A stretch of 64,000 nt of DNA from Clostridiales bacterium (GTDB taxonomy: Bacteria; Bacillota; Clostridia; Oscillospirales; QAMX01): positions 9,552-73,551 of the forward strand of contig JAEDMJ010000003.1 of NCBI GenBank assembly GCA_016303065.1, given 5' to 3'. Below, in pieces: positions 48,023-54,481 of this stretch. The stretch's first letter is position 1; each line of letters begins with the position of its first letter. Below the pieces are notes generated by a model that made no database searches, was not told where the DNA came from, and saw nothing but the letters and a program-made list of their open reading frames with translations. The translations under genes were made by a program, and so were the position numbers.

Positions 48023-50812
48023 TCAGCTTATAAACTTTATCGCCGCAACGCCCATGGACGGAAGCTCAACAGACGCGCCGTTTCCGTCGATTTCAAGTTC
48101 GCGCAGCGGATTTTCGCAGCAGTCCACAAGCACCGCCCTTACGGGACGTCTGAAAAGCTCCACGCGCGCGTCGGTCTTTTCTCCCGAGACATTGTATACG
48201 CGCACGACTATGCCGTTTCCGTCCTCCGCCGGCTTCAGCGCCGACAGCGCCGCTCCGCTCACCCTCACCGCGGAGGCGTCCGCCGGAAGGCTGCCCACAT
48301 GGGGCGTCACGCTTGCATAAACCGTGGGATGGGAAAATTTCACGGCGGTTTCCAAAAGCGCCTCTGCCCTCTGCTCCGACACGGCGACGCCAAGACGCAC
48401 ATCGTGCACGCCGTATTCCGGATACGGATCCGGATCCGTGGACGCGCGAATCAGAGAGACCGAAACCTCTTTTCCGGAACTTCTGAACCCGTATTTTGTG
48501 TCCGCCGTCAGCATGATAAGCGGAAGTCCCGGGTCCATGGCGTTTTCCGGCGCGCAGAAGCTCAGACAGGGAATGTCGTGACGGGCGGGCTCGCGCTTTA
48601 TAACGCCCATCGGAATGTCGCAGAAGGATTTTCCGGAAACATATCCGAAGGGGACGGAGAACACAAGCGACGGAATCCGCTCTTTCGAGCCGATCTCGTG
48701 CCAGTCGGCTTTCACCGCAAACTCCAGAAGCCTGGATTTTGCGCCGAGACTGACCGTCACGGTCAGTTTCGAGGCGCCGAAGGAAAGGCTGTACCTCACG
48801 CTTGAGCGCACGGGCCCTCTTTCCACCTTTTCGACTCTGACGGCTCTCGTCTCGTTCAGATCTTCGACGCGGCTGCGGTTCCCGACGCGCCATGCGCTCA
48901 TGCCGTTCACCGTGTCCTCTTCGATGTATTCAAACCGGCAGGAGGGCTCGTCGATAAGCTCCACGCCTCCCCGCGGGCGCAGGGAGACAAGCTTCATGGA
49001 ACGCCTGTCAAACCTTGCGCATATGAGGCCGTTGTCGAGAACGACGTCCTCGTCGGAGATGTCTTCAACGCGGTCGTTGCGCTCAAACCAGCCTTTTTCA
49101 AAGCTTTCAAGCTTCTTTTCACCTTCGGTTATCCAGCAGACGGTCCACCCCAGCGGCGGCACGGCAAGCTCTGCGGTCAAACGGACAAACCTGTGGTCCC
49201 AGTACCAGTTCCCGATCTCGAGGATCTGATGCGCGCACTCCGCTCCGTCAAAGCGAAGCACCTTCAGACAGTTCACGTCTCCCTGCCAGTCCCAAACGGT
49301 GATCTCCACGGGTTCCGTTCTCAGATACTCCGTCGTATTGTAGACGATGAACGCCCGGTTCCTGCCCCGTCCCCTTTCGGTTTTCGGGAGAGAAAATCCG
49401 GAATCCTGTCCCAAAGAGTAGCCCACTCCCGCTCCCTCGGAAACGGTCAGCTCTCCGCTTTCCGCGTCGAGCAGCGACACGTCGATGTGATCCCCGGCGC
49501 AGGCCATCGCCCTTGTGGACGCGGCATTCACAGCCGCAAGGGCTTTTTGAAACTCTCCCAGGGCATACTCCCTTGTCTCGACCTTTCCGCTTCCGGGAAG
49601 AATGTCGTGGAAGTGGTTGAACAGCACCTTTTCCCAGGCGCCGCCCAGAGCTTTTCCGCACTTTTCACCGGAGACCATGTCCGCGACGGCCGCCAGCGCC
49701 TCCCCGTCCCCAAGTCTTGCCTCGGCAATGCGGTTCGCCATTTTTATGCGCGACTGGGAGGTGTAGCATCCGGTGAATATGAAATTCTTTTCCCCCGAAT
49801 AAACCGGGAGCTTTTCGCGGATTTTTTCGAGGGCGGCAAAGTATTCCCCAAAGGTTCCGCAGCGCATCTCAGCCACAAGGGGCCAGGAGGCAATATCCCG
49901 TATGCGCTCGATATCGCGGCGCGTGGGTCCGCCGCCGTGGTCTCCGACGCCGTAAACCTTGAGCATTGTGTCCGTACCGTAGCGGCTGCAAAACTCCGGC
50001 GCCATGAGCACGGCCTCCGGCGATATGGAGCCGTTGTACCATTTCGCTTCCTTGCAGCACAAAAGCTCCGCTCCCGATTCCGAGCGCCAGCGGTAAAGAC
50101 AGTCCTCGTAAAAGCCCCGGCAGTGGTAATAATATCTGACTCCGCCGGAGGCGCAGATCTCCGGCACATTGGCCGAATGGCCGAAGGTGTCCGGTTCAAA
50201 ATCGATGTTCAGCGCTTCGGGATCCAGACCCCAAACTTCGGACATATAGCTCTTCGTGTTCAGAATATGCCGCGTCAGGGATTCGCCCGAAGGCATATTC
50301 TTGTCGGTTTCCACCCAGGTCGACGCCGTCACTTCCCAGCGGCCTTCTTTTATCCTGAGTTTTATCTCCTCCATAAGCCACGGCGCGTATTTCTCAACGA
50401 TTCGGTACACCGACGCCTGGGACTGGGCAAAGGTGAACTCCGGATATTCCCGCATCAGACCGAGGACAGTCCGGAAAGTGTCCACGGTCAGCCCGGCGGT
50501 TTCCTGGAACCCCCACATCCAGTTCATGTCGATGTGAGCGTGACCCACGCACAGAACCTTGTATTTTTTGCACTCCGCAGAATATGGCAGCAGCACTTTT
50601 TCGGCAAACTGCGCCGCAGCGTCGGTTATGACTCCGTCGGATTTGACGGACTCAAGAAGCGCGTCCGCGGAGAGCTCGATATCCCTGTCAAAACGCCCGC
50701 CCTGAACTCCTGAAAGCCTTGTTAAGTATTCGAGTTCGGATGTGATCCTTTCCGCCCAGTAGGACTTGCCGTTTTCAAGCTTCAGCTTTAAGATCTTTTC
50801 TGCAAGAGTCAT
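48023..50812 (-). CDS. GH38 alpha-mannosidase
   Basis: ..LCVGHAHIDMNWMWG.., ..FEPDTFGHS.., ..YGVGDHGGGPT.. GH38 catalytic-domain motifs. Length is 929 aa. Confidence 0.85.
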   Translation of the reverse strand: MTLAEKILKLKLENGKSYWAERITSELEYLTRLSGVQGGRFDRDIELSADALLESVKSDGVITDAAAQFAEKVLLPYSAECKKYKVLCVGHAHIDMNWMWGFQETAGLTVDTFRTVLGLMREYPEFTFAQSQASVYRIVEKYAPWLMEEIKLRIKEGRWEVTASTWVETDKNMPSGESLTRHILNTKSYMSEVWGLDPEALNIDFEPDTFGHSANVPEICASGGVRYYYHCRGFYEDCLYRWRSESGAELLCCKEAKWYNGSISPEAVLMAPEFCSRYGTDTMLKVYGVGDHGGGPTRRDIERIRDIASWPLVAEMRCGTFGEYFAALEKIREKLPVYSGEKNFIFTGCYTSQSRIKMANRIAEARLGDGEALAAVADMVSGEKCGKALGGAWEKVLFNHFHDILPGSGKVETREYALGEFQKALAAVNAASTRAMACAGDHIDVSLLDAESGELTVSEGAGVGYSLGQDSGFSLPKTERGRGRNRAFIVYNTTEYLRTEPVEITVWDWQGDVNCLKVLRFDGAECAHQILEIGNWYWDHRFVRLTAELAVPPLGWTVCWITEGEKKLESFEKGWFERNDRVEDISDEDVVLDNGLICARFDRRSMKLVSLRPRGGVELIDEPSCRFEYIEEDTVNGMSAWRVGNRSRVEDLNETRAVRVEKVERGPVRSSVRYSLSFGASKLTVTVSLGAKSRLLEFAVKADWHEIGSKERIPSLVFSVPFGYVSGKSFCDIPMGVIKREPARHDIPCLSFCAPENAMDPGLPLIMLTADTKYGFRSSGKEVSVSLIRASTDPDPYPEYGVHDVRLGVAVSEQRAEALLETAVKFSHPTVYASVTPHVGSLPADASAVRVSGAALSALKPAEDGNGIVVRVYNVSGEKTDARVELFRRPVRAVLVDCCENPLRELEIDGNGASVELPSMGVAAIKFIS

Positions 50813-51237
50813 CTCTTTTCCTCCTCGTGTTTTAAGATTCCCATATATGTTTCAAGTATCAGCGACGCCGCCACTGCGTCCACCGTATTCTTTCTCTTTT
50901 TTCCGTACACACCGTTGTCCCCGAGGATCCTGTGAGCGTCCACGGTCGTGCGTCTCTCGTCCACAAGGTCGACGCGCAGCCCCGTGCGCCCGGCAAGCTC
51001 CCGGGCAATGCGTTCCGCCCGCTCCGCCCGTTCGCCTTTTGAACCGTCCATGTTCACCGGACATCCGACCGCCACGGCGCCCGGACGCTTTTCTTCAAAC
51101 AGCGCGCACAGCCTGTCCAAAAGCCGTGCAGTATTTTTTTCCCGGAGCACTTCCGTCTCTCCCACAAGCGTCATCATTATGTCTGAAAAAGCGACGCCCG
51201 TCCTGCTGTCTCCGAGATCCACCGCGCAGACCTTCAT
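50809..51237 (-). CDS. ruvX: Holliday junction resolvase-like nuclease RuvX (YqgF)
   Basis: MKVCAVDLGDSRTGVAFSD.. YqgF opening. 142 aa. ATGA overlap with the GH38 gene. Confidence 0.85.
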   Translation of the reverse strand: MKVCAVDLGDSRTGVAFSDIMMTLVGETEVLREKNTARLLDRLCALFEEKRPGAVAVGCPVNMDGSKGERAERAERIARELAGRTGLRVDLVDERRTTVDAHRILGDNGVYGKKRKNTVDAVAASLILETYMGILKHEEEKR

Positions 51238-51269: not shown

Positions 51270-51299
51270 ATTATATCGCATTTTCGGCCGTTCTGGCAA
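51270..51299 (-). promoter_or_regulatory. Sigma-A type promoter upstream of ruvX
   Basis: On the minus strand: TTGCCA (51299-51294), 18-nt spacer, TATAAT (51275-51270). Confidence 0.45.
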
Positions 51300-51397
51300 C
51301 AGTTATTTTCCTTTTTCGATTTTTTCCGCGCGCTTCTCCCCCCAAAAGCAAAAAGCGCGCGCCCCTTTTTCCCAAAGAAGTGCGCGCCGAAAAAAAG

Positions 51398-52183
51398 CTA
51401 TTTTCGGAAAACGACGTACAGAAGCTCCGTGCCTATGACCTCTTTTCCCGCAATTTCAAAACATTTCGGAAGTCCCGCTTCAAAGCGTTCGCCGTAAAAC
51501 GCTTCCATTCCCCTGTCCCTGCCGCCAAGGGAACGAATCGGAAAGCTCACGGCAAGCTTTTTCACGGAAAGCTCTTCCATAAGCCGGAACCCGCGCCCCT
51601 TCTCCTGGGCGTCAAGAACCGGCAGAAGCTTGAACAGGAACGCCGCGTCTGCCGTTTTTTCCGGAGCCTCCGCCGCCGCATCCATGGGCTCCGCCGTTCC
51701 GCGGATTCCCGCAAGCGCAAAAAAGCGCTCTATGAGAGCAAGACTTCTCATGTCTATATCCGAGACCCAGTACTCCCTGACCGACGGCATCAGTCCCGCG
51801 CAGAACGGCGCAAAGCCGCACCCCGGTTCCAGGACGGACACGGGATTTTCAAGTTTTTCCGCCAAAAAGCCGTAAAACTCCGAAATAAAAGGAAGTCTCT
51901 CCCTTGTGGACGCGTGAAGCGAACAGATTTCCCTGAGCTCTTCTTCGGAGAGCATCCTTTTCCCGCGTTCCGCTTCTTCGAGTATTCCTGCGGCCCGCCT
52001 GTGGCAGTCCCCGTTTTCAAACGCACCGCAGAGTATATGCAGCCTGCGCTTCACGGCTTTTACGCAGTCCCTGTCCTTTTTATACTTCGCGCACTCTTCC
52101 CGGGAAATCTTTTCCACAAGCCCGGGGAAGACGAACGAATACTTTCCCTCTGCGGCTGCGGCCGCCGCGTCCTCAGCTCTCAC
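51398..52183 (-). CDS. FmrO/ArmA/Rmt-family 16S rRNA (guanine1405-N7)-methyltransferase homolog
   Basis: Matches recalled ArmA/RmtB blocks: ..RRLHILCGAF.., ..LHASTRERLP.., ..VLEPGCGFAP.., ..AAFLFKLLPVLD.., ..LAVSFPIRSLGGRDRGME..F., ..VIGTELLYVV. Start proposed at GTG 52183, which gives about 261 aa, similar to the Rmt enzymes. The upstream part of ORF-track 51398..52468 overlaps the tgt-like gene and looks non-coding. Confidence 0.7.
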   Translation of the reverse strand: MRAEDAAAAAAEGKYSFVFPGLVEKISREECAKYKKDRDCVKAVKRRLHILCGAFENGDCHRRAAGILEEAERGKRMLSEEELREICSLHASTRERLPFISEFYGFLAEKLENPVSVLEPGCGFAPFCAGLMPSVREYWVSDIDMRSLALIERFFALAGIRGTAEPMDAAAEAPEKTADAAFLFKLLPVLDAQEKGRGFRLMEELSVKKLAVSFPIRSLGGRDRGMEAFYGERFEAGLPKCFEIAGKEVIGTELLYVVFRK

Positions 52184-53285
52184 GGGCCGAAAGAAGCTCC
52201 ATAAGCTTCGTATAAAAGCGGAGGTTGTGCGCCGTCGCCAAACGCAGAGCCAAAGGCTCGCCGATGGAAAACAGATGCCGCAGATAGGCGCGGCTGTATC
52301 TGCGGCAGCAGATGCAGTCGCAGTGCTCCGACACCGGACGCGTGTCCCGCCAGTGGCGGTCGTCTTCGGGGTAATAGTGGGAATAGAACTTCGGGTCGGA
52401 AAGATCCAGCTCTTCCAGGGAGCGGCACTCCGGATTGAAAACAAAGAGGCGGTTGTGCCGCGCCTCACGGGTCGGTATCACGCAGTCAAAAAGCGTATAT
52501 CCCATCTTCCGGCAGGCGACGATCTCTTCCGGACGTCCGACTCCCATGGCGTATTTTACTCCGTCGTCCGGCATGAGCTCCGCCGTATACGCCAGAAGAT
52601 CGTAAAGAAGCTTTCCGTCCGGTCCCAGCGGCCACCCGCCGAAGCCGTACCCCTCAAATCCGATCTCTTTAAGACCTGCGGCGCACTCTGCGCGGAGGGC
52701 GAGGTCTCCGGCCCCCTGAATTATGGCAAAAAGCTTCGGCTTCGCGCCCTTTGTCTTTCTGGCAGAGAGCTGGGTCTCAAACTCTTTTTTGCATCTTTTG
52801 GCCCAGCGCACCGTCGTGTCCACGGAAATGCGGTTCACTTCCGGCGCGGCGTCCGGCGCGGTGCAGTAGTCGAGGCACATCATAATGTCCGAACCGCAGG
52901 CGAACTGGGTCGATATGCATTTTTCCGGCGTCAGGACCGTCTTTTCTCCCCCGTCGGGTTTGAAAACAATTCCGTCGGGCCTGATCTCTCCGTATTTCGG
53001 ATTCTCGCCGATAAGCGAAAACACCTGAAATCCACCCGAATCCGTCAGAATCGGCCTGTTCCAGCCGATAAAGCGGTTCAGACCTCCCGCAGCTTTCAGG
53101 GTTCCCGGGCCCGGCTTTGAATTGAGGTGGTATGTGTTCATGACAAGTCCCGGCACGCGGCAGTCCTCAAGATCCTCCGCGCCGACGCAGCGGACAACTC
53201 CGCGCGTTCCGTCCGGGAAAAAAGCCGGAAACCTGAGCGATCCGTGTGGAAGCTCCATCTCTCTGAGTTTTTCAGTCAAGTTCAA
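52173..53285 (-). CDS. tRNA-guanine transglycosylase (Tgt) family protein, divergent
   Basis: ..ILTDSGGFQVFSL.., ..YAMGVGRPEEIV.., ..LFDCVIPTREARHN.., and zinc site CDCICCRRYSRAYLRHL. TTG start at 53285 with AAGGAGAG 4-5 nt upstream. The N-terminus and the substrate-pocket segment (GFGGWPLGPDG) differ from canonical bacterial Tgt. Confidence 0.75.
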   Translation of the reverse strand: MNLTEKLREMELPHGSLRFPAFFPDGTRGVVRCVGAEDLEDCRVPGLVMNTYHLNSKPGPGTLKAAGGLNRFIGWNRPILTDSGGFQVFSLIGENPKYGEIRPDGIVFKPDGGEKTVLTPEKCISTQFACGSDIMMCLDYCTAPDAAPEVNRISVDTTVRWAKRCKKEFETQLSARKTKGAKPKLFAIIQGAGDLALRAECAAGLKEIGFEGYGFGGWPLGPDGKLLYDLLAYTAELMPDDGVKYAMGVGRPEEIVACRKMGYTLFDCVIPTREARHNRLFVFNPECRSLEELDLSDPKFYSHYYPEDDRHWRDTRPVSEHCDCICCRRYSRAYLRHLFSIGEPLALRLATAHNLRFYTKLMELLSARES

Positions 53286-54138
53286 ATCTCTCCTTAACGC
53301 GAATCGCCGCGCGTTTTATGTCGTTTTTGGGATATTTCCCCCGGGCAATGAGCCTGTCCGACGCTTCACGCACCGACGCGCCGTTCAGCACAAGCTCCAG
53401 TATTTCCGCTTCCGGAGAAACCCCGCCCCCGTCCGTTTCTCCGCCGGGCTTATCCGGTCCGAGGTTTATGACGATTGCGTATTCGCCCTTTCCGGAATCC
53501 GGATTTGCCCGCACCTCCGAAAGCACGTCCCCAGCCGGGCCGCGGTATATGCGTTCAAATTTCTTGGTCAGATCGTTGCAGAGACATATCTCCGCTTCGG
53601 GAAGCTCACGGCATATCAGCTCCAGGGAGGCCTCGATCCTCTTCGGGGATTCATAGAAAACCGCCACGCGGGCATATTCCGAATTTATCCGGCGCAGAAC
53701 CTCCGAAGTTTCCCTGTCCTTCCGGGGAAGAAATCCGTAGAAAGCGAATGCGACGGCGTTGAAGCCCGAAACGGATATCGCCGCCGCAACGGCGGAGGCG
53801 CCCGGAACCGCCGTTGCACATATCCCGGCGGACACGGCTTTGCGCACCAGTATGCTCCCCGGGTCGGAAACGCAGGGGGTCCCGGCGTCGGTTATAAGCG
53901 CGACGTCCTTTCCCGACGCAAGCTCGGCCACAAGTCCGTCCGAGCCGGTCTCCTCGTTGAACTTGTGATACGCCCTGAGCTTCTGCCGTCCGATTCCGAG
54001 ACGGTCCAGAAGCACTCCGCTCGTTCTCGTATCCTCCGCGGCGATGATATCCGCGTTCCGAAGAGTCTCCGCCGCACGGGAAGATATGTCGCCAAGATTT
54101 CCTATCGGCGTTGCCACAACAAAAAGGGTTCCGCTCAT
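53272..54138 (-). CDS. rsmI: 16S rRNA (cytidine1402-2'-O)-methyltransferase RsmI
   Basis: GTLFVVATPIGNLGDISSRAAETLRNADIIAAEDTR.. tetrapyrrole-methylase-fold signature of RsmI. ATG at 54138. Confidence 0.9.
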   Translation of the reverse strand: MSGTLFVVATPIGNLGDISSRAAETLRNADIIAAEDTRTSGVLLDRLGIGRQKLRAYHKFNEETGSDGLVAELASGKDVALITDAGTPCVSDPGSILVRKAVSAGICATAVPGASAVAAAISVSGFNAVAFAFYGFLPRKDRETSEVLRRINSEYARVAVFYESPKRIEASLELICRELPEAEICLCNDLTKKFERIYRGPAGDVLSEVRANPDSGKGEYAIVINLGPDKPGGETDGGGVSPEAEILELVLNGASVREASDRLIARGKYPKNDIKRAAIRVKERFELD

Positions 54139-54277
54139 TTTTTCTTCCAACCCTCCGAAATCAATATTCACCGGCGCATTTTACCGCCGCGTGACTATAT
54201 TATATCCCATGATCGCCTTTCCCGCAAGAGCCGCGTTTTTTCTTTTTGAAGGCGGACAAAAAAAACAAAAAAATCTC

Positions 54278-54306
54278 TTGACAATCCGGCGGCAATCTGT
54301 TAAAAT
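54278..54306 (+). promoter_or_regulatory. Canonical sigma-A promoter for the tRNA pair
   Basis: TTGACA (54278-54283), 17-nt spacer, TAAAAT (54301-54306), about 25 nt before tRNA-Asp. Confidence 0.6.
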
Positions 54307-54330
54307 AACTGCTGTCGCAAATAACGATTT

Positions 54331-54405
54331 GGCCCGGTAGTTCAGTCGGTTTAGAACGCCAGCCTGTCACGCTGGAGGTCGTGGGTTCGAGCCCCATCCG
54401 GGTCG
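54331..54405 (+). tRNA. tRNA-Asp (GTC)
   Basis: Manual cloverleaf: acceptor GGCCCGG/CCGGGTC, D-stem GTTC/GAAC, anticodon stem CCAGC/GCTGG with loop CTGTCAC, T-arm GTGGG-TTCGAGC-CCCAT. No encoded CCA. Confidence 0.9.
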
Positions 54406-54408
54406 TAC

Positions 54409-54481
<73 letters not shown>

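Follow-up and report, generated by a model that had tools for sequence, protein, structure and literature searches.

RsmI makes 2'-O-methylcytidine at position 1402 (Cm1402) of 16S ribosomal RNA (rRNA), and N7-methylguanine at position 1405 (m7G1405) blocks 4,6-disubstituted aminoglycosides. In E. coli, the genes for RsmI, RsmH, RsmF and RsmE are scattered. These four enzymes have their target sites all around G1405/A1408, and resistance methyltransferases interfere with them; Rmt enzymes also render ribosomes error-prone (PMC12406665). Upstream of one acquired methyltransferase gene, rmtG, "a putative tRNA ribosyltransferase CDS" has been described (PMC3904158), and a review places rmtG in an operon with rsmH, tgt and rsmI (PMC9311965). 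The literature handles this upstream tgt as a passenger tRNA gene without a role, and our literature search returned no paper that gives the tgt-like gene a function or the status of a separate subfamily.

We analysed a stretch of 64,000 nucleotides, hereafter the window, from a Clostridiales bacterium (contig JAEDMJ010000003.1, positions 9,552 to 73,551 of the forward strand), in which rsmI, a Tgt-like gene of the tRNA-guanine transglycosylase (TGT) family and an FmrO/Rmt-type methyltransferase-like gene overlap one another. The central features are as follows.

53272 to 54138, minus strand: rsmI, 16S rRNA C1402 2'-O-methyltransferase (TIGR00096, PF00590)
53288 to 53295, minus strand: Shine-Dalgarno box AAGGAGAG for the Tgt-like gene, within the 3' end of rsmI (read from the sequence)
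52173 to 53285, minus strand: Tgt-like gene of the 'PD[AG]T / GGWP' TGT subfamily (PF01702, TIGR00430)
53272 to 53279, minus strand: overlap of rsmI and the Tgt-like gene, 8 nt (14 nt from TTG 53285)
51398 to 52183, minus strand: FmrO/Rmt-type 16S rRNA (guanine1405-N7) methyltransferase-like gene, 261 aa, GTG start (PF07091)
52173 to 52183, minus strand: overlap of the Tgt-like and FmrO-like genes, 11 nt (from stop and start positions)

On the evidence below, the three predicted enzymes form an intact, deeply conserved, translationally coupled unit, which belongs with decoding-centre rRNA modification and aminoglycoside resistance. The role of the middle enzyme is proposed more tentatively. 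We put at somewhat under even odds, roughly 0.45, the probability that it acts on the 30S subunit/16S rRNA, installing a 7-deazaguanine for a guanine, and that TGTs of the 'PD[AG]T / GGWP' subfamily are the first rRNA base-exchange enzymes, working with RsmI and the Rmt-type methyltransferase, sometimes within a single polypeptide. The adjacency is partly known from acquired resistance genes; what is new is its generality, the fusions, the remodelling of the base pocket and the contrast with canonical tgt.

Gene order across relatives

A scan of the GTDB species genomes returned 36 subfamily loci, hosted by Oscillospiraceae, Christensenellales, Lachnospiraceae, unclassified Bacillota metagenome-assembled genomes (MAGs), Anaerolineales, and the isolate Anaerobacterium chartisolvens DSM 27016. 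An FmrO-like gene directly follows the Tgt-like gene in 31 of the 36, and rsmI is adjacent, upstream or downstream, in 13 of the 36 when the window's own locus is counted. Stop and start overlap by 8-14 nt in about 20 of the 31 Tgt-like/FmrO-like pairs, and the recurrence of the same overlaps in so many related loci places the arrangement far beyond chance. The gene order is conserved over very different lineages (guanine-cytosine (GC) content 35-74%), and the pairwise identities of the two proteins correlate (r = 0.87), the mean being 62% for the Tgt-like protein against 37% for its FmrO-like partner. We then pooled the GTDB loci with those from an independent metagenome scan, retaining loci with at least 700 nt downstream, and compared them with loci of canonical tgt.

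Subfamily loci (55): FmrO adjacent in 44; rsmI within 2.5 kb in 20; queA/yajC adjacent in 0
Canonical tgt loci (93): FmrO adjacent in 0; rsmI within 2.5 kb in 0; queA/yajC adjacent in 50

Fisher tests on the pooled counts gave 1e-27 and 8e-14 for loci that are phylogenetically non-independent. A preliminary description of this DNA had proposed the three-gene order in related genomes as a check, and the order proved to be conserved, with overlaps, covarying identities and fusions. These comparative tests argue strongly that the Tgt-like enzyme is functionally connected with the modifiers of 16S rRNA helix 44.

The same comparison bears on the main rival explanation, which we regard as somewhat less probable than the rRNA reading, namely that the Tgt-like protein is a variant salvage-type transglycosylase of guanine 34 in tRNA, with an altered base preference, that is co-transcribed with a G1405 methyltransferase. 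The wobble modification would then tune accuracy and offset the error-proneness caused by m7G1405, or aminoglycoside stress, and the fusions would be by-products of the overlaps. Adjacency to queA/yajC in none of the 55 subfamily loci, against 50 of the 93 canonical ones, tells against such a tRNA enzyme, while stand-alone copies in small-genome organisms, both candidate phyla radiation (CPR)-like (contigs L094 and L099-L101) and DPANN, where one lies beside aspS in an archaeon, tell for it; there, a tRNA role is the simplest reading. A Woesearchaeota MAG (L035:303-4153, CAZAGO010000001.1) carries a bacterial-type subfamily TGT, 45% identical and with GGWP kept, without FmrO and directly after gatE-like and aspS genes. 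We know of no queuosine synthesis in Archaea.

In the 'OH_' Bacillota MAGs (L003, L004, L007-L010, L016, L034 and L036), a protein with an NTP_transf_2 nucleotidyltransferase domain is encoded upstream of the pair, and an energy-coupling factor (ECF)-transporter S component with no assignable substrate, a P-loop nucleoside-kinase-like protein and a MatE exporter downstream. In L084, the Tgt-like gene is followed by a 260-aa open reading frame (ORF) that the FmrO profile shows not to be FmrO.

Natural fusion proteins

Two kinds of fusion join the predicted enzymes in single ORFs. P0213 (628 aa, two members on two NCBI contigs) combines TGT and FmrO and is preceded by rsmI with an 11-nt overlap. 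P0217, P0376 and P0377 (707-713 aa) combine RsmI and TGT through a linker of about 60 residues; P0377 occurs on at least nine contigs from independent pig-gut and other samples. On the P0217 and P0377 contigs inspected, an overlapping FmrO gene follows RsmI::TGT, except in L168, a P0377 contig on which an uncharacterised 445-aa ORF stands in its place. Canonical-type TGTs found in the same searches were fused to tRNA-pathway partners, either QueA and YajC or an MnmC-like methyltransferase domain. This difference weighs against a tRNA guanine-34 enzyme, since the subfamily is fused to RsmI and FmrO, which act on the assembled 30S subunit, whereas canonical TGTs fuse with proteins of the tRNA pathway. 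Simple co-regulation of modifiers of the translation apparatus, a possible alternative, leaves the fusions unexplained.

A 544-aa 'TGT' in L172 (5306-8069, contig_129441) was considered as a third kind of fusion and rejected. This locus, in 74%-GC DNA, has the order rsmI-TGT-FmrO, and the TGT ORF enters the 5' half of FmrO by frameshifted read-through and continues there for 170 codons in a different frame, so that only the FmrO 3' half is called; the frameshift is an assembly error or marks a pseudogene. Three other architectures were noted beside these. P0390 (766 aa, Logan) is RsmI (PF00590) fused to a domain like 3-dehydroquinate synthase (DHQS), and a DHQS-like gene lies directly after rsmI-TGT-FmrO at L022:11890-12357, which together hint at a further link of the module with aminocyclitol chemistry. 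P0306 (581 aa, CPR-like) is a subfamily TGT (FFPDAT, GGWP) with a C-terminal RNase H-like RVT_3 domain. In the pig-gut lineage L168-L171 (330-5179), the TetR-RsmI::TGT-FmrO unit adjoins a small divergent set resembling nonribosomal peptide synthetase genes (two AMP-binding proteins, a carrier protein and a condensation domain).

Fold and predicted base pocket of the Tgt-like protein

The Tgt-like protein scored 322 bits against PF01702 and 306.8 against the equivalog model TIGR00430, at its cut-off of 306.75, and its relatives in L173 and L174 scored 300.8 and 300.3, under that cut-off; the public names of subfamily proteins likewise differ between 'Tgt' and 'tRNA-guanine transglycosylase'. 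Over the barrel and the zinc subdomain, it shares about 45% identity with Zymomonas mobilis Tgt, and its AlphaFold2 model (pLDDT 93.5, pTM 0.91) has the Z. mobilis and Thermotoga maritima TGTs as its top PDB structure matches (TM 0.83-0.85). A sequence search of the PDB returned only tRNA TGTs at E < 1e-5. Among 1.84 billion cluster representatives searched with HMMER, about 50-60 clusters (50% identity) have both the 'PD[AG]T' and the 'GG[WYF]P' motif. By these measures the Tgt-like protein is a genuine TGT, and its subfamily is distinct, widespread and large.

We aligned 37 subfamily relatives with 13 canonical Tgts, using the Z. mobilis numbering. The catalytic Asp102 and Asp280 are kept in all 37 subfamily sequences, as are Asp156, Gln203 and Gly230; Met260 is kept except for leucine in 3 of the 37, and the zinc ligands C318, C320, C323 and H349 are conserved. 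Conservation of the catalytic and guanine-binding residues, together with those that bind U33/U35 and form the dimer interface, supports a tRNA guanine-34 transglycosylase, as do the bacterial TGT fold, the identity to the Z. mobilis enzyme and the score at the TIGR00430 cut-off. The replacements lie elsewhere. Asp45 stands in place of valine (V45D) in 100% of the subfamily at a position that is invariant in canonical enzymes, all 37 sequences have A232P and L231W/F, and various residues take the place of E235, so that the canonical GGL[AS]VGE motif reads GGWPLGP in the window's protein. Further replacements at canonical-invariant positions are K52R, L68V, E157Y, G234D, S287E, N290H and Q292R.

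In canonical Tgt, the Leu231/Ala232 peptide flips, turning its NH toward guanine N7 (via water) or its C=O toward the preQ1 aminomethyl group, and Glu235 stabilises either state (PMC3660597). Since Pro232 has no amide hydrogen and Glu235 is gone, this peptide switch is inoperable in the subfamily. The enzymes appear to retain guanine-type base-exchange chemistry while reading position 7 of the base differently. Loss of the switch from guanine to preQ1 speaks against the tRNA guanine-34 explanation.

The same pocket makes conceivable, though quite improbable, an exchanger specific for m7G that would convert N7-methylguanine to guanine as an eraser, a proof-reader or a repair enzyme; the resistance mark would thereby be reversible, or off-target or damaged (ring-opened, depurination-prone) m7G would be removed. 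A232P takes away the sole main-chain NH that reads the guanine N7 lone pair, the invariant aspartate of V45D and Trp/Phe231 by the pocket would suit a cationic, N7-blocked base, and the coupling with an N7-methyltransferase through overlap and fusion is strict and stoichiometric. In addition, m7G is an intrinsically good leaving group. Such an eraser, however, leaves unexplained the linkage with queuosine-precursor transporters and QueE (described below), the structural argument for it is drawn from sequence alone, and writing and erasing one mark from one operon or polypeptide seems futile.

RsmI and the FmrO-like partner

RsmI of the window scored 198.5 bits against TIGR00096 (cut-off 167.9) and 101 bits against PF00590 (TP_methylase). 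The FmrO-like protein, which NCBI labels 'hypothetical protein', scored 103 bits against PF07091 and 221.5 bits against NF000466 (Rmt family), under the cut-off of 250, as a diverged member of that family would. Its top PDB matches are RmtB (1e-39) and RmtF, and RmtB, RmtF, Sgm and RmtC align with it over its full length; the alignment spans RmtB 11-250 and RmtC 13-280, the N-terminal 30S-docking domain included. Near-universal residues for 30S docking, distortion of helix 44 and catalysis have been defined by cryogenic electron microscopy of the RmtC-30S complex (PMC10288597). In RmtC numbering, K20, Y21, H54, the aromatic residue 60, S107, D160, K204, R241 and M245 are all present in the FmrO-like protein, and among 32 partner proteins K204, S107, H105, E110 and R111 are invariant and H54 is found in 31. 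Judged by sequence, the FmrO-like partner is a competent m7G1405 methyltransferase.

Wider clusters with decoding-centre enzymes, 7-deazaguanine supply and biosynthetic genes

We inspected three distant FmrO lineages, and each adjoins a subfamily TGT. The first (L173, GC 64%) has the order RsmH-TGT-FmrO...RsmI, and its FmrO is identical to RmtF at 236 of 241 positions (98%), which makes the cluster a candidate progenitor-like context of the acquired rmtF; it lies at L173:2968-7900 of a 38-kb, apparently chromosomal contig (ENA ERZ27232966 k141_315352). In the second (L174-176), the order is TGT-FmrO-FmrO-RsmF-like-(RsmE)-queuosine precursor transporter (TIGR00697)-(RsmI); L174:3016-9762 (GCA_964536805.1, CAZHYQ010000002.1) holds the TGT, two FmrO, RsmF-like, RsmE, a YhhQ-type transporter and RsmI in 7 kb, and the Logan contigs L175 and L176 are arranged in the same way. 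The two FmrO paralogues of L174 are mutually 33% identical, and tandem FmrO paralogues occur also in the Anaerolineales MAG L032. The third (L177-179) reads ruvC-x-RsmI-TGT-FmrO-ruvA.

Genes connected with queuosine precursors occur in two more loci, as QueT-TGT-FmrO in L083 and as QueE (TIGR04508, 353 bits) beside TGT and rsmI on the 73%-GC contig L087. A tRNA guanine-34 transglycosylase would readily account for QueT, QueE and YhhQ as neighbours, but not for clusters whose modification enzymes are exclusively those of decoding-centre rRNA; no tRNA-modification gene was seen in the clusters examined.

An aminoglycoside-like biosynthetic cluster surrounds the pair in A. chartisolvens, an anaerobic relative of Clostridium, and in two MAGs. 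That of A. chartisolvens DSM 27016 (L021:1-20800, NZ_QPJT01000027.1) encodes a DHQS-like cyclase (under the aroB cut-off), one class III and two DegT aminotransferases, B12-radical S-adenosylmethionine enzymes, a TylF-like methyltransferase, an ATP-grasp ligase and a GT4 glycosyltransferase together with LuxCDE-like genes; similar sets occur in L019 and L028 and partly in L022. The cluster looks like a 2-deoxystreptamine-type aminoglycoside pathway, with the pair at its middle, and an aminoglycoside biosynthetic cluster is the usual site of a self-resistance gene.

These three loci are part of what might be said for a substrate other than RNA, either a protein, as with Cap10, or a small molecule of the aminoglycoside type, or else for an unlinked passenger of the methyltransferase, which we consider very unlikely as a group. 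Within the TGT family there are precedents for action on DNA (DpdA) and on protein, Cap10 conjugating 7-deazaguanine to a protein N-terminus (bioRxiv 10.1101/2025.04.06.647259), and ISCR/IS91 elements may have carried the gene along on plasmids. Nonetheless, the biosynthetic cluster is absent from most loci, the RNA-contacting residues and the zinc subdomain are conserved, and no PADLOC model of DpdA or Cap10 matched the Tgt-like protein at E ≤ 0.01. A passenger is further disfavoured by the conservation of the overlap and of the protein, whose mean identity exceeds that of its partner over wide phylogenetic distances. Identity as a defence-system TGT (DpdA or Cap10) was rejected on the PADLOC result, and there are no defence genes among the neighbours of the Tgt-like gene.

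Clinical plasmids

A tblastn search of PLSDB placed the subfamily gene (FFPDAT/GGWP), at 54-59% identity to that of the window, on resistance plasmids in the following arrangements.

rsmH-tgt-rmtG-ΔrsmI-ISVsa3: Klebsiella pneumoniae Kp13 plasmid pKP13f and related plasmids
tgt-rmtD1: clinical plasmid
tgt-metallophosphoesterase-rmtB2: Providencia
IS91-Δtgt-rmtE2: clinical plasmid

The tgt-like gene is intact on the rmtG, rmtD1 and rmtB2 plasmids (Klebsiella, Enterobacter and Providencia), where it co-occurs with the chromosomal tgt of the hosts; this is the sole co-occurrence shown. Acquired Rmt enzymes nevertheless give full resistance without an intact tgt-like gene, as with Δtgt-rmtE2, and armA and rmtC also act alone. 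The sufficiency of Rmt by itself, and the error-proneness of Rmt-modified ribosomes which a wobble modification could offset (PMC12406665), are again points that a tRNA guanine-34 enzyme would accommodate. So is the behaviour of Vibrio cholerae, which loss of tgt sensitises to aminoglycosides below the minimal inhibitory concentration.

Proposed role of the module and points that weigh against it

In the reading that we prefer, the module would modify the decoding centre of the small subunit at the top of 16S rRNA helix 44. RsmI would make Cm1402, the FmrO/Rmt-like enzyme would make m7G1405, and the Tgt-like enzyme would put a 7-deazaguanine of the preQ0/preQ1 type, imported or self-made, in place of a guanine or of the N7-methylguanine that its partner produces. 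In favour of this reading are the adjacency, overlaps, covarying identities and fusions, the further decoding-centre enzymes and 7-deazaguanine supply genes of the wider clusters, the remodelled pocket, the preserved functional residues of the FmrO-like partner, and the position of the pair in the biosynthetic cluster of A. chartisolvens. The target could be m7G1405 or a neighbouring guanine whose N7 contacts aminoglycosides; we take the candidates to be G1405/m7G1405, G1494, G1491, and G1392 within U1391-G1392-U1393, which is presumably the sole UGU near the site (E. coli 16S sequence). G1392 is a candidate because of this sole nearby UGU and the conserved arginines that bind U33/U35. As a substrate, m7G would fit A232P, V45D and L231W, since it is cationic, is a good leaving group and needs no hydrogen-bond donor to N7. 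Conceivably, the pay-off would be a broader or more robust aminoglycoside block, with N7 lost or substituted, or else an offset to the loss of fidelity that m7G1405 brings.

Several observations weigh against rRNA base exchange. To our knowledge, no TGT-family enzyme acts on rRNA and no 7-deazaguanine occurs in rRNA. The tRNA contacts R286, R289 and K264, which hold U33/U35, are conserved in the subfamily, and so are the aromatic residues of the homodimer interface needed for tRNA binding. The linkage to QueT, QueE and YhhQ is equally expected for tRNA queuosine, and the stand-alone genes of the CPR-like contigs and the DPANN archaeon lack the module context. Resistance by Rmt without an intact tgt-like gene means that the Tgt-like enzyme is dispensable for m7G1405 formation. 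Finally, adjacent overlapping genes can fuse and persist without a common substrate.

Were the target indeed 16S rRNA, base replacement would be seen in a ribosome for the first time, and the TGT fold would gain a new class of acceptor; aminoglycoside resistance or the compensation of fitness could acquire a further layer, and an unrecognised rRNA modification that affects aminoglycoside action or fitness may be circulating in clinical isolates via the rmtG, rmtD and rmtB2 plasmids. Even as a tRNA enzyme, the Tgt-like protein would represent a new TGT subfamily with a disabled peptide switch, and its obligate genetic linkage of wobble-base exchange to decoding-centre methylation would be new as well. 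The clinically important rmt genes have their ancestral context in the module, which gives it medical relevance, and the loci reveal native, progenitor-like contexts of acquired resistance genes, such as the cluster with the 98%-identical RmtF.

Gene starts, expression signals and surroundings in the window

The preliminary description had placed three overlapping minus-strand genes here, and their ORFs and profile scores bear out its coordinates. rsmI encodes 288 aa from ATG 54138, with an in-frame alternative GTG at 54171, and ends with the stop codon 53274-53272; the Tgt-like gene ends at 52175-52173. The maximal Tgt-like ORF has 370 aa from TTG 53285, or 368 aa from the next in-frame TTG 53279, where the public 368-aa protein P0001/MDD6261951.1 also begins. 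A ribosome-binding site for this gene had been reported within rsmI and is found as the AAGGAGAG box at 53295-53288, 2 nt from TTG 53285 and 8 nt from TTG 53279. This spacing and the start of MDD6261951.1 make an rsmI/Tgt-like overlap of 8 nt more likely; the 14 nt given originally hold from TTG 53285 but not from the likelier start. The 11-nt overlap between the Tgt-like and FmrO-like genes stands, GTG 52183 being also the start of the public 261-aa protein P0121/MDD6261950.1, and such an overlap indicates translational coupling. The remaining features of the locus are these.

54199 to 54227, minus strand: possible operon promoter TTGCGG-17 nt-TATAAT, found by eye and weak, with 3/6 matches in the -35 box, under the scan threshold
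51327 to 51361, minus strand: GC-rich hairpin 3' of the third gene, a doubtful terminator (12-bp stem, no T tract, z = -1.5)
51270 to 51299, minus strand: promoter-like site TTGCCA-18-TATAAT for ruvX, at the end of the operon, with 11/12 matches
50809 to 51237, minus strand: ruvX (PF03652, TIGR00250)

A terminator and a new promoter had been proposed after the third gene. The promoter holds, as the 160-nt spacer between the third gene and ruvX contains this strong sigma-70-like site. The terminator does not, for the hairpin is weak (z = -1.5) and without a T tract, and a terminator scan reported none.

Searches with tblastn, profile hidden Markov models and phmmer found neither a further copy of tgt, FmrO or rsmI nor any queA, queT, queE or yajC in the window, which is part of a 288-kb contig, so that these negatives say little about the whole genome. 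Rfam models run on positions 40000-64000 matched two tRNAs only and no riboswitch or other RNA. The two, tRNA-Asp(GTC) and tRNA-Thr(GGT), lie at 54330-54481 on the plus strand and are transcribed away from the operon; a strong promoter-like site occupies 54278-54306. Tgt has four classical substrates, of which tRNA-Asp is one, and its nearness to the operon is probably coincidence.

Comparison with known systems

Compared with bacterial Tgt, the Tgt-like protein shares the (β/α)8-barrel and the C-terminal zinc subdomain, but it lacks the N-terminal ~20 residues and has an insertion of ~17 residues before the zinc site. V45D, L68V, L231W, A232P, G234D and the lost E235 would give it an altered ribose-34 pocket, and its gene is never found in the queA/yajC neighbourhood that is typical of tgt (0/55). 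DpdA and Cap10 kept the TGT fold and 7-deazaguanine chemistry while changing the acceptor and are thus precedents for an acceptor switch, although their gene neighbourhoods are unlike that of the Tgt-like gene and there is no detectable sequence match.

The window's rsmI is a bona fide member of the RsmI family. RsmI, RsmH, RsmF and RsmE all act within a few nucleotides of G1405, and RsmH, RsmF-like and RsmE genes share the cluster in related loci, whereas neither clustering with a TGT-family gene nor a fusion of RsmI to one has been described for the housekeeping methyltransferases of model organisms. The FmrO-like protein shares 31-40% identity with the named Rmt enzymes; unlike the acquired Rmt genes, its gene is chromosomal, in a MAG of anaerobic Clostridia. 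The published environments of acquired Rmt enzymes nonetheless show the same tgt-like-rmt arrangement as the window (PMC3904158, PMC9311965).

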